64,000 nt of DNA from an uncultured Trueperaceae bacterium (GTDB lineage Bacteria > Deinococcota > Deinococci > Deinococcales > Trueperaceae): the NCBI GenBank assembly GCA_963799485.1, contig CAWCXJ010000006.1, positions 160,001 to 224,000 on the forward strand. The letters run 5' to 3'. Of this stretch, positions 17,940-54,017 are shown piece by piece (position 1 is the stretch's first letter; each line of letters starts with the position of its first letter). The notes below the pieces were generated by a model, which was given only the letters and a program-made list of their open reading frames with translations, did no database searches and was not told the origin of the DNA. Made by a program: the position numbers and the translations under genes.

Positions 17940-19385
17940 TTACAAAGCGTCACCGGTTGCCGAAATCCCGGCAGCAGCCTCGAGCGCCCCCGCGACCCGC
18001 AGCACCCGCGCGTCTGCCAGGGCCGGGGCCAAAAGCTGTACCCCACACGGCAACCCGTTCTCCGCCGTACCCGCCGGAACACTAATAGCCGGAACGCCCG
18101 CGAGGTTTGCCAGCACCGTATCGACGTCACCTAGATACATCGCCAGCGGATCGTTTACGTTTGCACCGAGAGGGAACGCAACTGTCGGAGCCGTCGGCGT
18201 CAGCAGCAGGTCGTAGTCTGCAAATGCCCGGGCCATATCGTCGGCGATCAGACGGCGCACCTTGAGGGCCTTGCCGTAGTAAGCGTCGTAGTATCCGGCT
18301 GACAGCGCGTAGGTTCCCATCAGGATACGGCGGCGCACCTCCGGGCCGAAACTCTCGCCGCGCGAACGCATCATCACCTCGGCTTGTCCAAGCCGGTTCG
18401 CGCCGCTGCGGTGACTGTAGAGCATCCCGTCAAAGCGCGCCAGGTTCGACGACGCTTCGGCCGGGGCGACCAGATAGTAGGCCGCTACGCCGTGCGGCGC
18501 GTGCGGCAACGAGACCTCACCGACTTCAGCCCCCAGGTCTCGCAGGGTTTTTTCGGTGCGCCCCAAAGCCGCCAAAACCCCGGCGCTGTTCCCTTCCCCG
18601 CAGAGTTCGGTGACCTTGCCGATACGGAAGCCGCTCAGGTCGCCCGGAGTGCGCGCGTCCGTCAAGTCGGGAGAGTCCGGGAGGCTGGTGGCATCATATG
18701 GGTCGTGAGCGAACATCACCGACAGGGCAAGCTCCAAATCACGGGTGCTGCGCGCCAAGACGCCGACCTGCTCCAGAGAGCTTGCGAACGCGATGACCCC
18801 GTAACGCGACAATGCGCCGTAGGTCGGCTTAAAGCCCAAGACCCCCGTAAAACTCGCGGGTTGCCGCACCGAGCCGCCCGTATCGGTACCGAGTGCGAGC
18901 GGGACGACGCCCGCAGCAACCGCCGCCGCCGAACCCCCCGACGAGCCGCCGGAAACGTACGCCGGGTTTCGTGGGTTACGCACCGGGCCGTACGCCGAGT
19001 TTTCGCTCGAGCTGCCCATCCCGAACTCGTCCAGGTTGGTTTTGCCGATGACAATCGCCCCGGCAGCCTCGAGCCGCGCCACCACCGTCGCGTTATAGGG
19101 CGGGACGAAGGTGTCCAGGCTTTTCGACCCCGCCGTCGTCCGAACGCCCAGGGTGCAGATATTGTCCTTGACCGCGACCGGTACCCCGGCAAGCGGCCCC
19201 AAGGTCTCCCCGGCAGCGCGGCGGGCGTCTACGGCGCGGGCCCGCTCGACAGCCTCCGGCAAGAGGGTGATAAAAGCGTTTAGCGCCGAGGCTGCCTCAG
19301 CCCGGGAGAGCGCACCACGCACCGCGTCTTCTGCGCTCAGCTTACCCTTTTGCACCGCCGCTGCCGTTTCAAAAGCCGTCGTCAT
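17940..19385 (-). CDS. gatA: Asp-tRNA(Asn)/Glu-tRNA(Gln) amidotransferase subunit A
   Basis: KDNI, GGSSGGSAAAV, GTDTGGSVRQPA, EASSNLARFDG, EVRRRILMGTYALSAGYYDAYY. Confidence 0.95.
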   Translation of the reverse strand: MTTAFETAAAVQKGKLSAEDAVRGALSRAEAASALNAFITLLPEAVERARAVDARRAAGETLGPLAGVPVAVKDNICTLGVRTTAGSKSLDTFVPPYNATVVARLEAAGAIVIGKTNLDEFGMGSSSENSAYGPVRNPRNPAYVSGGSSGGSAAAVAAGVVPLALGTDTGGSVRQPASFTGVLGFKPTYGALSRYGVIAFASSLEQVGVLARSTRDLELALSVMFAHDPYDATSLPDSPDLTDARTPGDLSGFRIGKVTELCGEGNSAGVLAALGRTEKTLRDLGAEVGEVSLPHAPHGVAAYYLVAPAEASSNLARFDGMLYSHRSGANRLGQAEVMMRSRGESFGPEVRRRILMGTYALSAGYYDAYYGKALKVRRLIADDMARAFADYDLLLTPTAPTVAFPLGANVNDPLAMYLGDVDTVLANLAGVPAISVPAGTAENGLPCGVQLLAPALADARVLRVAGALEAAAGISATGDAL

Positions 19386-30020: not shown

Positions 30021-30313
30021 GCCGGGGAACATGTTTACTGTCCCGGCACGCTAGTCCAAGCTATGCACTTTAGTGCAAGACTTTAGTTGCTACTCACTTT
30101 TTGCCTTTGAAGCTAGACTTTCATCACCGACTCCGGGTCAATTCAGTAACGGCCGCATGAGCCGGGGCTTTAGTCCACCTTCAAACCTATGTACTCTAGT
30201 GGGTGTTTAGTTTTGGTTCGGGTAAGGATGTTCAAAGTATTCAGCAGTGTCAGCTTGTAAGATTGCTGTCAGAACCTTTAGCGTATTCTCCCTTAACCGA
30301 CGGGTTACCCCAC

Positions 30314-30387
30314 CCTCGGACGCGATGAAAGCTGTTCCTTATCTGGGCGCTTGGAACAGCCCGAGCAAGTAGCGCAACCGGCCGAGG
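30314..30387 (+). ncRNA. c-di-GMP-II riboswitch
   Basis: P1 CCTCGG/CCGAGG; GATGAA; stem GCTGTTCC/GGAACAGC with TGGGCGCT loop; 3' GAGCAAGTAGCGCAACCGGCC matches the class II consensus as recalled. Confidence 0.85.
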
Positions 30388-30477
30388 AGAGTGCAGCGCA
30401 CTCCACCTCACCCTGCACGGCATACCGTGCAACCGGGCCCAAATAGGAGGCCCAATATCCCCTGGGGTGGAGGAACG

Positions 30478-41045: not shown

Positions 41046-41121
41046 TGGCGGAGCCGACGGGATTTGAACCCGCGACCTTCTGCGTGACAGGCAGATATGC
41101 TAACCCCTACACTACGGCTCC
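41046..41121 (-). tRNA. tRNA-Asp(GTC)
   Basis: GGAGCCG acceptor stem, anticodon loop CTGTCAC, GGTTCAAATCC T-arm, encoded CCA. Confidence 0.97.
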
Positions 41122-51378: not shown

Positions 51379-52668
51379 CTAAGGCTGCAACCGGCTCCCG
51401 TCTCTCGGAAACGCCCGCGCAAACCGCACATTGGGAATATTGAGGAGCAGCGCCGTAAGCCGCTCCGCCCCGAGCGCGAACCCGCCGTGCGGCGGCATCC
51501 CGTACTTGAAGACCTCCAAGTAGCCCTTAAACGCCGCCGGGTCCATTTTGCGTTTTTGCAGTTCTTCGACGAGCACCGCGTAAGTGTGGATACGCTGCCC
51601 GCCGGAGCTGATTTCCAGTCCCCGGAAAATCAGGTCGAAACCCAGCGTCAGCCCGTCACCGGTCGGGTAAGTGTAAAAAGGCCGCGCGGCTTGCGGGTAG
51701 TTCGTGACAAAGACAAAATCCGAACCGTGTTCCTCTTTGGCCCAGCGCCCGATCAAGCGTTCGGCTTCGGGGTCTAGGTCTTTGCCGCCGGTTTGGTGCC
51801 CGTAACGCTCTGCCACCAGCTCTCTCGCCTCTAAAAGCGTAATCCGTGGGAACGCGGTCTTTACGTCCGGGGCAGCGGCCTCGAGCAGCGCCAACTCAGG
51901 CGAGCACGTCTCGGCGGCGTGCATCATCATCGTTTTGAGCAGGGTTTCCTCGAGCCCCATCACCTCGTCCACCGACTCGATAAAACCCATTTCAACATCA
52001 AGTGACAAGTATTCGGACAGGTGACGGCTGGTGTGCGACAACTCGGCGCGGTAGACCGGCGCGGTTTCAAACACCCGCTCGTACACGCCGACCATGATCT
52101 GTTTGTAAAGCTGCGGCGACTGCGCCAGATACGCGCGTTTGCCGTAATAATCGACTTCAAACAGGGCCGCGCCGCCCTCGGCACCCGCCGCCACGAGTTT
52201 AGGCGTAAAGATTTCGGTAAAGTCTTGGGCAATCAGGGTATCCCGGAATGAACGCACCAGTTCGGCCTGCACTTTGAGTGCGGCCCTGGCTTTAGGACTC
52301 CGCAGCGAGACGTGACGGTATTCCAGCAAGGTATCCGGGTTGACGTTCCACTCCTCTTTCGGGATTTCAATCGGCGCCGGTTCGGTCGCTTCGGCAATCA
52401 CTTCCAGCTTTTCGGCCTGAAGCTCCAACCCACCCGGTGCTTTTTTACTCTCGACGACCCGGCCCGACACGCGCACCGACGATTCGGCTAGCGGCAGGTC
52501 AACTTTGCCGAAAACGCACTGCACTACCCCCGTGCGGTCGCGCAGGAGCAGAAAACGGATGCCGCCTAAGTCGCGGCGCGAATGTACCCAGCCTTGCAAG
52601 CCGACGTGTTCGCCCAAGTGCTTAGGCAAGTTGGCAACGAGGGTGCGCGGTTCAGCGGTAATGCTCAC
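51379..52668 (-). CDS. aspS: Aspartate--tRNA(Asp/Asn) ligase, short non-discriminating type
   Basis: About 430 aa; GWVHSRRDLGG and KAPGG; AEGGA, YLAQSPQLYKQ, SSGGQR, PPHGGFALGAER. Confidence 0.92.
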   Translation of the reverse strand: MSITAEPRTLVANLPKHLGEHVGLQGWVHSRRDLGGIRFLLLRDRTGVVQCVFGKVDLPLAESSVRVSGRVVESKKAPGGLELQAEKLEVIAEATEPAPIEIPKEEWNVNPDTLLEYRHVSLRSPKARAALKVQAELVRSFRDTLIAQDFTEIFTPKLVAAGAEGGAALFEVDYYGKRAYLAQSPQLYKQIMVGVYERVFETAPVYRAELSHTSRHLSEYLSLDVEMGFIESVDEVMGLEETLLKTMMMHAAETCSPELALLEAAAPDVKTAFPRITLLEARELVAERYGHQTGGKDLDPEAERLIGRWAKEEHGSDFVFVTNYPQAARPFYTYPTGDGLTLGFDLIFRGLEISSGGQRIHTYAVLVEELQKRKMDPAAFKGYLEVFKYGMPPHGGFALGAERLTALLLNIPNVRFARAFPRDGSRLQP

Positions 52669-52684
52669 AAAAACTCCCTTAAGC

Positions 52685-52710
52685 AAAAAACCTCGAGGCT
52701 TGCTCGAGGT
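52685..52710 (-). terminator. Attenuator terminator in the aspS leader
   Basis: ACCTCGAG-CAAGC-CTCGAGGT followed by TTTTT, between the leader ORF and the aspS RBS. Confidence 0.8.
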
Positions 52711-52731
52711 CACAGGCTCACTTTTATGCGC

Positions 52732-52779
52732 CTACGCCCCGTACCACCAATTATCGTCGTCAAAGCGTCGGGGATTCAT
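52732..52779 (-). CDS. Putative aspS leader peptide MNPRRFDDDNWWYGA
   Basis: ATG 7 nt after extended -10 TGCTACAGT; consecutive GAC GAC GAT AAT; stop lies within the antiterminator arm. Confidence 0.7.
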   Translation of the reverse strand: MNPRRFDDDNWWYGA

Positions 52780-52795
52780 AGGCTGAACTGTAGCA
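52775..52795. repeat. 21-bp direct repeat, copy 1 (TTCATAGGCTGAACTGTAGCA)
   Basis: Identical to 57606-57626. Confidence 0.9.
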
Positions 52796-53033
52796 TTCAC
52801 GCCCACGCTAGGCAACTGCACCTTGATGTTTGCTGAACATACAGGTCGTTGCGGGCAGCCCGGACAAGCGGTACTCGAGCTTTATTTTACGGCGAATTTG
52901 GCATAGACGAGTTGGTTTTTTTGCGCCGTTGCGGCGCACCCTCCGGTACGGATGGACGCTTTTCAACCGCTCGCACATTTTTGACTACACCCAGCGAAAC
53001 TCGTCCCGGTTGTTGTCGTGGCTACGACGTAAA

Positions 53034-54017
53034 CTACGGTGCAAAAGTCGGCGTGCGCTCCGCACTTTCCGCAGCAGCTTCTTGAAGCCGTTCCACGTCG
53101 CGCCGTGGCGGTAGGCCGAAGTGCCTTTTGTACTCTCGACTAAAGTGCGAGGCGTCCTCGTAACCTACGCGGAAGGCGGCGCTCGCTGCGTCCAACTGCT
53201 CACCGAGCATCAGCCGCCGGGCTTCTTGCAGCCGCAGCCGCTTCTGGAACTGCAAGGGACTCATCGCGGTCACGGCCTTGAAGGTGTGGTGAAACCCCGA
53301 CACGCTCATATTGAGGTCTTGCGCGATGCTCTCTACCCGTAGCGGCTGGTCGAAGTCTTTACGGAGCCGCTCGATGGCCTTGGTAACGCGGTGTGTTTGG
53401 CCTCCCAAGCCAGCAATGTGACCGAGCCTACCGCCCTGCGCGCCCAGCAGCAGCCGGTAGACGATTTCGCGCATAACGAGTGGGGCGAGAAAAGCGGCGT
53501 CTTTGGGAGCGTCTACAAGCCTGACGAGCCGCAGCAAGGCGTCCAGCAGACCGGCGTCCAGCGCGCTGACGCCGATGGCCCGCAGGTCGGCCCGGGTTTT
53601 CGGTGCCAGGTAGTCGGCCTCGAGCATCACTGAACCGACGAGGGTGGGCTCGAGCTTCAGGCGCAAGCTGAGGTAGGGCTTTTCTTTCGACGCAGCCAGA
53701 ACGTGCGTTACCGTAGGCAGCTCACCTGTGACCAGCAGGTAATGGGCGGGGTCGTACTGATAGCGCTCGCCCCCGAGAAGAACTTCTTTGCTGCCCTGGG
53801 CAATCACGCAAAAAGCAGGCTCGGACACGCTGTGAAGCGGCTCTTTAGGCGAGGAGAGGCGGTGGAGGTAGAGACCTCTCAGCGGTTCAGCGCTCCCGTC
53901 TTCACGAACGACCCCGGCGACGCGCTCGACCAGCTCACCGATGCTGTCCTGCACCCTGGGCAATTCGCGGTTTGGCTGCCGAAAACTTACCGAGTTTATA
54001 GGAGCTCCATCAGACAT
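53034..54017 (-). CDS. AraC family regulator (YqhC-like)
   Basis: CVIAQGSK, EIVYRLL, MSPLQFQKRLRLQEARRLM, VGYEDASHFSREYKR. Confidence 0.92.
   Translation of the reverse strand: MSDGAPINSVSFRQPNRELPRVQDSIGELVERVAGVVREDGSAEPLRGLYLHRLSSPKEPLHSVSEPAFCVIAQGSKEVLLGGERYQYDPAHYLLVTGELPTVTHVLAASKEKPYLSLRLKLEPTLVGSVMLEADYLAPKTRADLRAIGVSALDAGLLDALLRLVRLVDAPKDAAFLAPLVMREIVYRLLLGAQGGRLGHIAGLGGQTHRVTKAIERLRKDFDQPLRVESIAQDLNMSVSGFHHTFKAVTAMSPLQFQKRLRLQEARRLMLGEQLDAASAAFRVGYEDASHFSREYKRHFGLPPRRDVERLQEAAAESAERTPTFAP

Follow-up and report, generated by a model that had tools for sequence, protein, structure and literature searches.

A candidate ribosome-mediated attenuator reading aspartate and asparagine codons upstream of the non-discriminating aspS gene in Trueperaceae and other Deinococcales

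The gene aspS2 codes for an archaeal-type non-discriminating aspartate--tRNA(Asn) ligase (AspRS2). We have analyzed the region preceding this gene in an uncultured Trueperaceae bacterium of the phylum Deinococcota (assembly GCA_963799485.1). The gene is found in a stretch of 64,000 nucleotides (nt) of contig CAWCXJ010000006.1 (positions 160,001 to 224,000), which we call the window; positions given below are those of the window. An initial annotation, made from the sequence alone, had proposed that a short upstream open reading frame (uORF) codes for a leader peptide which senses Asp and Asn, and controls the transcription of aspS2 through a terminator and a competing antiterminator. The following features are found at this locus, from the promoter to the gene:

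52810..52815, minus strand: -35 hexamer TTGCCT (direct reading; 8/12 consensus matches in the promoter rule described below)
52787..52795, minus strand: extended -10 TG-C-TACAGT (direct reading and promoter rule)
52732..52779, minus strand: leader uORF MNPRRFDDDNWWYGA, 15 codons plus a TAG stop codon (52734-52732) (sequence reading and promoter rule)
52750..52761, minus strand: putative control codons D7 D8 D9 N10, GAC GAC GAT AAT (sequence and modelled ribosome)
52730..52741, minus strand: antiterminator 5' strand CGGGGCGUAGGC, formed by the last base of codon Y13, codons G14 and A15, the stop codon and 2 extra nt (folds)
52705..52717, minus strand: antiterminator 3' strand GCCUGUGACCUCG, overlapping the terminator 5' arm (folds)
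52689..52711, minus strand: intrinsic terminator GACCTCGAG-CAAGC-CTCGAGGTT, with a stem of 9 base pairs (bp), a 5-nt loop and -12.7 kcal/mol (sequence and terminator scan)
52685..52690, minus strand: terminator T6 run, where an attenuated transcript is expected to end (sequence and terminator scan)
52674..52680, minus strand: ribosome-binding site (RBS) of aspS, AAGGGAG (direct reading)
51379..52668, minus strand: aspS2, 429 amino acids, GTG start codon at 52668 (profile matches)

The distance between the -35 and -10 hexamers is 17 nt (the -35 is absent from the initial annotation), and 7 nt separate the -10 from the uORF ATG (52779). In relatives, TTGAC[A/C/G/T] stands where the window has its -35, and a TAnnnT hexamer is found 7-11 nt 5' of the uORF ATG. 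Translation of the window uORF probably takes place on an mRNA that is leaderless or nearly so. Five of the 15 residues of its peptide are Asp or Asn (D+N). The uORF stop codon is 63 nt from the aspS start, and the T run is separated from this start by 17 nt (52684-52668), which include the RBS. The extended -10, the 7-nt spacing, the 15-codon frame and the terminator had all been described in the initial annotation, and all of them are present. The gene itself had also been correctly named: Its product gives 559.2 bits with NF003483 (cut-off 353) and 393.4 bits with TIGR00458 (cut-off 368.4). It is flanked by a gene for an AraC-type regulator upstream, which ends at 53034, well before the leader promoter, and by recF downstream. 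The 141-nt leader region folds with z = -2.25 relative to shuffled sequences.

The same layout is found in most related genomes. We have surveyed 41 genomes of the order; an aspS2 ortholog is present in 39 of them (G004 and G022 are the exceptions), and the upstream regions of all 39 orthologs, including that of the window, have been used. A rule blind to composition selects the ATG with the best sigma-70-like promoter, whose -10 must end 4-13 nt before the ATG; the best hairpin past the stop codon is then taken. This promoter-first rule replaces a terminator-first definition of the uORF, which gave wrong hairpins or reading frames in L003, L006, L008, L019, L026, and L031. A uORF is picked in 36 of the 39 regions. 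One of these loci, L010, has a promoter with 7/12 matches and a hairpin without a T tail; it was dropped ahead of all counts, which leaves 35 loci. The succession of promoter, uORF and hairpin is found before 35 of the 39 orthologs, and the loci kept span all five families of the order. The -10 is 7-11 nt from the ATG in all 35, and the hairpin always ends 2-114 nt before aspS, on the same strand. Several Thermus-type loci have terminators with weak T tails. Three regions gave no pick: The region of L004 is cut by a contig end, and the C-terminal half of a leader with DDDN is visible in it, while in L015 and L018 aspS directly follows another gene.

A second set of loci, which overlaps the first one, has 80 members, 73 of them with sufficient upstream sequence. 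The same rule, used with thresholds, finds the element in 54 of these 73 loci. Inspection of 17 misses gave 5 further elements, in which the wrong ATG had been taken or the element was out of reach of the rule. A comparable leader was not found in three Anaerolineales orthologs (48% identity). The initial annotation had suggested an alignment of upstream regions as a check; a D/N-rich uORF and covarying hairpins are indeed conserved. The feature is real, and its conservation throughout the order is confirmed. A different situation is found in L108 and L114, where a promoter of the same type (TTGACA-17-TAGACT) is placed directly before the aspS start, with neither uORF nor terminator: It looks as if the attenuator had been lost and aspS itself were leaderless.

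The leader peptides are not conserved, except for their Asp and Asn codons and for the codons that form the antiterminator strand. After the initial Met, the 35 leaders contain 140 Asp or Asn among 530 residues (26.4%). In the two remaining frames of these stretches the numbers are 12/530 (2.3%) and 4/530 (0.8%), 2000 shuffles give an average of 28.8 and a maximum of 51, and the proportion in aspS coding sequences is 6.3%. At least two adjacent Asp or Asn residues are found in 31 of the 35 leaders. This enrichment is kept in family types with different nucleotide motifs (NNVNDD, NND, and DDD). Codon choice is also peculiar. The AAT:AAC ratio is 42:28 in the leaders and 45:168 in aspS (Fisher p 4e-9), and the GAT:GAC ratio is 33:37 and 150:444, respectively (Fisher p 2e-4); both p values are inflated by kinship. 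A striking case is the [DE]DN motif of Trueperaceae-type leaders, which appears in the window as GATAAT (52750-52755): All 54 loci have AAT as its Asn codon, a pyrimidine follows in each of 44 distinct sequences, and among 45 distinct peptides 32 have the motif 8 residues from their C-terminus. The invariant AAT could reflect tuning through a wobble codon, a constraint of structure, or a pause element resembling a -10.

In the window and in its nearest congeners, L002 and L003, DDDN is followed by two Trp codons, W11 and W12 (codons W11-G14, 52738-52749). They are missing in more distant relatives and in another congener, L004. In the folds, the UGGUGG of the window Trp codons pairs with the CGCU of codons 5-6. 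These codons may add sensitivity to Trp, or may be only structural.

The end of the leader and the terminator are able to form alternative structures. Most Trueperaceae leaders end in Leu-Gly-Ala, encoded by CUCGGGGC. This sequence is identical to the terminator 3' arm, so it is able to pair with the 5' arm. The 5' strand of the window antiterminator is homologous to the CUCGGGG of relatives (the Leu-Gly-Ala codons), which covaries with the terminator 5' arm. We have folded partial transcripts, from 18 nt before the stop codon up to the terminator loop, in which the 3' arm is not yet made. At least 5 bases of the 5' arm are paired to the leader end in 30 of the 35 loci, with a median of -20.5 kcal/mol; when the RNA is masked to 12 nt past the stop codon, as it would be by a terminating ribosome, the median falls to -2.4. 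For the window, ViennaRNA gives an antiterminator of 12 bp with a bulged A, three G-U pairs and -19.7 kcal/mol (z = -3.0 relative to shuffles), which is stronger than the terminator (-12.7 kcal/mol). It is exactly the helix which the initial annotation had drawn by hand.

Covariation has been studied in a MAFFT alignment of 18 Trueperaceae-type leaders. In the 7-bp core of the antiterminator 88% of the cells are paired, compared with 57.6% and 71.3% after a shift of the partner by one column. Changes on both sides are seen in four pairs, and the covariation score is 0.196, compared with 0.129 in shuffles, none of 500 reaching the observed value. The terminator has 93.7% of its cells paired in these 18 sequences, and compensatory changes in 7 of 9 pairs. 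Altered 5' arms are matched by both partners: CCUCGAG in the genus of the window, CCCCAAG in L012, and CCCCCGG in L020. The antiterminator and the terminator are mutually exclusive, and they covary.

Our modelled ribosome covers the RNA from 12 nt upstream of the first P-site base to 13-15 nt downstream of it. In the partial transcript of the window, the terminator 5' arm is sequestered when the A site is at any codon from N2 to N10, and this is lost from W11 through the stop codon. When the full leader is folded at equilibrium, stalls at D7-D9 give the antiterminator (0/9 terminator pairs), while ribosomes at N10, W11 or the stop codon give the terminator; the initial annotation had recommended folding both states. 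With a slightly different 3' end, only stalls at D7-D8 give the antiterminator at equilibrium. The Asp codons are better placed, and Asp may be the main signal in the genus of the window, according to this model. In the leaders surveyed, the run of Asp and Asn codons mostly ends within a few codons of the limit of permissiveness. Folding of complete leaders at equilibrium with ribosome footprints has been rejected as a test: The two states are not separated in most loci.

A third pairing had been suggested, in which CCCCG in codons 3-4 would act as an anti-antiterminator by pairing with CGGGG. This pairing is present in one fold, which includes sequence upstream of the uORF. When the RNA starts at the AUG, CGGGG pairs with ACGCUUUG instead, and the proposed pairing is not conserved across relatives. 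Among 30 loci with a clear antiterminator strand, at least 60% of this strand is paired upstream in 14, the median z is -0.37, and z is below -2 in only 3. An anti-antiterminator is not supported: It is not conserved and pairs no better than shuffled sequences. Such a 1:2 pairing is a feature of the trp subtype, not of the whole class of attenuators. We therefore read the element as a two-state device, in which termination would need a ribosome on the stop codon. Such a device predicts read-through, rather than super-attenuation, when the uORF is not translated.

The function of the gene must be considered in its metabolic context. Thermus thermophilus and Deinococcus radiodurans are described as having a second AspRS, the non-discriminating AspRS2, for the synthesis of Asp-tRNA(Asn), and in bacteria which have AsnRS and lack an asparagine synthetase the tRNA-dependent path is described as the sole source of asparagine (PMC6523644). 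The genome of the window contains asnS, the gene for AsnRS (TIGR00457, 474.6 bits, cut-off 342.6), and also aspS1, which codes for a bacterial-type enzyme. A search of this genome did not find asnA, and nothing above the cut-off was found for asnB: The best score is 80.8 bits (cut-off 267.1), from glutamine-amidotransferase domains only. As AsnRS is present, and asnA and asnB were not found, AspRS2 and GatCAB are the only route to asparagine in this genome. The gatA gene, already reported in the initial annotation, is found in the window (17973-19358, minus strand; TIGR00132, 534.5 bits), and gatB on another contig. There are one tRNA-Asn(GTT) gene and two tRNA-Asp(GTC) genes. One tRNA lies in the window (41049-41121, minus strand; 68.6 bits with Rfam) and is a tRNA-Asp(GTC) according to ARAGORN (G000:C6:201046-201121).

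No leader rich in Asp and Asn codons was found in this genome before asnS, aspS1, gatA or gatB. The lack of such a uORF with a terminator upstream of gatA suggests that the amidotransferase is outside this control. We have also scanned this genome (G000) for a promoter, an ATG, a short reading frame and a terminator before a long reading frame. There are 4 matches with strict settings and 13 with relaxed ones. Comparison of four downstream reading frames with NCBIfam identified two of them as leuS and leuC. A uORF with a run of Leu codons and a terminator precede both leuS (G000:C1:203149-205659; TIGR00396, 986.4 bits) and leuC (G000:C1:3237-4682; NF004016, 707.5 bits), which suggests that the leaderless leader-peptide design serves other amino acids in this genome. 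Another match, a uORF rich in Met before a peptidase-like reading frame, is probably due to chance.

Rfam gives no match at the aspS2 locus (52300-53300) up to an E value of 10, T-boxes included. At gathering thresholds, no T-box is found in the whole 64-kb window, which contains only the tRNA mentioned above and a cyclic di-GMP-II riboswitch, both of them elsewhere. The riboswitch aptamer is at 30309-30391, plus strand (67.3 bits, gathering score 53.5). A CRISPR-DR56 match inside aspS (52345-52381, minus strand) has 25.4 bits, compared with a gathering score of 35; we have taken it as a chance match.

Our interpretation is that aspS2 is controlled by a ribosome-mediated transcription attenuator which reads Asp and Asn codons; we would give it a probability of roughly 80%. 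Transcription would start at the uORF AUG, or a few nt from it, and a ribosome would load on the 5' end of the nascent RNA. With a good supply of both Asp-tRNA(Asp) and Asn-tRNA(Asn), the ribosome would reach the UAG and cover CGGGGCGUAGGC. The terminator 5' arm would then be free for the 3' arm, and RNA polymerase would stop at T6, 17 nt before the aspS start. On the other hand, a ribosome stalled at GAC-GAC-GAU-AAU (D7-N10) would leave CGGGGCGUAGGC outside, able to pair with GCCUGUGACCUCG. This antiterminator would use up the terminator 5' arm, and transcription would proceed into aspS2. The decision would be kinetic, made while the terminator is being transcribed. We infer the transcription start site (TSS) in this genome, the translation of the uORF, the stalling and any regulation. 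The core of this interpretation, a leaderless Asp/Asn leader which sets read-through, is that of the initial annotation. Conservation, frame-specific enrichment, covariation and the asparagine route all argue for it, at the level of sequence analysis, and the ribosome geometry fits it.

Several results weigh against this interpretation. A stall at N10 leaves 8/9 bp of the terminator, so the single Asn codon is borderline in the genus of the window. When complete leaders are folded at equilibrium, the terminator is kept in 34 of 35 loci at any ribosome position, and antitermination is found at only 14 of 140 A-site positions with Asp or Asn. In partial transcripts, 115 of these 140 positions are permissive, compared with 301 of 425 for other codons, a result which agrees with the model without being a discriminating test of it. 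With the ribosome at the stop codon, the 5' arm is still sequestered in 9 of 35 loci, and only 13 of 35 antiterminators have z < -2 relative to shuffles. The element is missing in L010, L015, L018, and several AT-rich or operonic loci. L019 (genome G007) has a promoter, a 19-codon uORF and a hairpin, but its peptide contains one Asn and no Asp; this element may be degenerate or re-targeted. Finally, the statistics exaggerate the support, given that the genomes are related and do not count as independent. As equilibrium folds favour the terminator, the switch, if it works, must be kinetic and co-transcriptional.

Other explanations must also be considered. The nucleotides might be functional and the peptide not: The leader RNA would bind a protein (for example, AspRS2), a tRNA or a sigma factor, and the codons would be a by-product. 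The constancy of the motif could be explained in this way, as its Asn codon is AAT in 54/54 although aspS uses AAT and AAC in a 45:168 ratio, a pyrimidine follows in 44/44, and it is 8 residues from the C-terminus in 32/45. A concrete form would be GAYAAU acting as an early -10-like hexamer which causes a sigma-dependent pause; nevertheless, such a pause element would supplement sensing by the ribosome, not replace it. We consider a role of the RNA alone improbable. The enrichment in Asp and Asn is strictly frame-specific (26.4%, compared with 2.3% and 0.8%), it is maintained in the families with NNVNDD, NND or DDD, where the nucleotides are different, and the uORF is always open and always ends beside the antiterminator strand. 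The lack of any Rfam match at the locus up to E 10, T-box or other, also speaks against it.

The promoter, uORF and terminator might instead be a separate small transcript, coding for a small protein or acting as a small RNA, with aspS2 transcribed from another promoter. The quality of the terminator (-12.7 kcal/mol, T6), which is favoured at equilibrium in nearly all loci, would agree with this, but there are just 17 nt, RBS included, between the T run and aspS, and a promoter scan found no promoter there. The hairpin is 2-114 nt before aspS and on the same strand in 35/35 loci, the AraC-type gene upstream is separate, and the peptide is not conserved outside the Asp and Asn codons and the antiterminator-strand codons: This explanation is very improbable. 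We give still less credit to a uORF which aids the translation of aspS, by ribosome delivery or reinitiation, with no role in transcription. Leader genes near structural genes have been proposed to raise translation, also in Deinococcus-Thermus, in passages of PMC4833913. However, the peak of distances given there is 10-11 bp, while the uORF stop is from 63 nt (window) to about 160 nt (relatives) away from aspS, with a strong hairpin and a T run in between. Neither the bias towards Asp and Asn nor the covariation of the antiterminator would be explained by such a role.

The attenuator might read more than amino-acid supply, given the invariant AAU context in genomes which prefer AAC; we consider this doubtful, although less so than the explanations just mentioned. 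It could take two forms. AAU is read by wobble by the single tRNA-Asn(GUU), and the leader may be tuned to the charging of this tRNA, possibly also to the modification of its position 34; the true signal would then be asparagine made on tRNA. Alternatively, GAYAAU may be a -10-like element at which RNA polymerase makes a sigma-dependent pause until the ribosome catches up; this element would take the place of the pause hairpin in the trp model.

Ribosome-mediated attenuation is a textbook mechanism. The interest of this case lies in its position in metabolism: As AspRS2 and GatCAB are the only source of asparagine in these bacteria, a leader with Asp and Asn codons would be a feedback loop for an amino acid synthesized on tRNA, and the form in which the product is made would be the one that is sensed. 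The element may be useful for the annotation of Deinococcota genomes. It may also guide the choice of a tractable organism, for example D. radiodurans or T. thermophilus, as a model.

The closest known system is that of Deinococcus deserti. De Groot et al. 2014 (Genome Biol Evol 6:932, PMC4007540), who summarize the trp attenuation model, have mapped the TSSs of this species and list 14 putative leader peptides involved in attenuation. In their Tables S9 and S10 transcription starts at the A of the ATG in 13 of the 14, and at -1 in the trpE leader (Deide_08989). One of these peptides, with the label 'Aspartyl-tRNA synthetase, non-discriminating', is Deide_10019 (MFAALANNNDNDPH): It has 14 residues, is rich in Asn and Asp, and is among those with a TSS at the A of the ATG. 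The element is not new: For a single species, it is on record as one line of a supplementary table. The initial annotation knew of no Asp/Asn leader peptide for aspS, which Table S9 contradicts, and regarded a leaderless leader frame as unusual, although this design is normal for the phylum: None of the 14 leaders in Table S9 is of another kind. Tables S9 and S10 and passages of the main text of that paper contain no structure model, comparative analysis or test for the Deide_10019 leader, and aspS is not mentioned in passages of PMC4833913 and PMC2965389. A full-text literature search gave no account of aspS2 regulation beyond PMC4007540, and no experiment on the element. To this record, our sequence comparisons would add a span of five families, a two-state design whose stop codon is placed on the antiterminator strand, the lack of signs of an anti-antiterminator, and the invariant AAU.

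Both Deide_10019 and the leader of the window are short, rich in Asn and Asp, and placed directly before the non-discriminating aspS; attenuation has been proposed for both. They also share the leaderless design, based on a mapped TSS in D. deserti and here only on an ATG 7 nt after the -10. Peptides at L027, L028, L032, and L034 are close variants of Deide_10019. On the other hand, the organism of the window belongs to a different family, the Trueperaceae. Its leader has DDDN followed by WWYGA, with one Asn in this stretch, while that of D. deserti has a run of Asn codons, and its antiterminator strand is found within the last codons and the stop, not just after the stop.

Similar logic is found in more distant systems. 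The pheST operon of Escherichia coli, with its leader peptide pheM, also combines an aminoacyl-tRNA synthetase gene, a leader rich in cognate codons and a terminator/antiterminator pair. A single amino acid is sensed by pheM, a leader with a Shine-Dalgarno sequence; ours is probably leaderless, two amino acids would be read, and the enzyme also serves the biosynthesis of an amino acid. The aspS and asnS T-boxes of Firmicutes respond to uncharged tRNA by terminator read-through before the synthetase gene. The physiological input and output would be the same here, but there is no Rfam T-box match, and sensing would take place by translation of codons, not by binding of RNA to tRNA. In the trp, his, leu and thr attenuators of Proteobacteria, a ribosome stalled at control codons selects the antiterminator over the terminator. 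Our element shares with them the logic of a biosynthesis operon, as AspRS2 starts the synthesis of asparagine. It differs in that neither a 1:2 anti-antiterminator nor a pause hairpin is supported, in its antiterminator strand, which overlaps the stop codon, in its predicted leaderless initiation, and in having only four control codons in the window.

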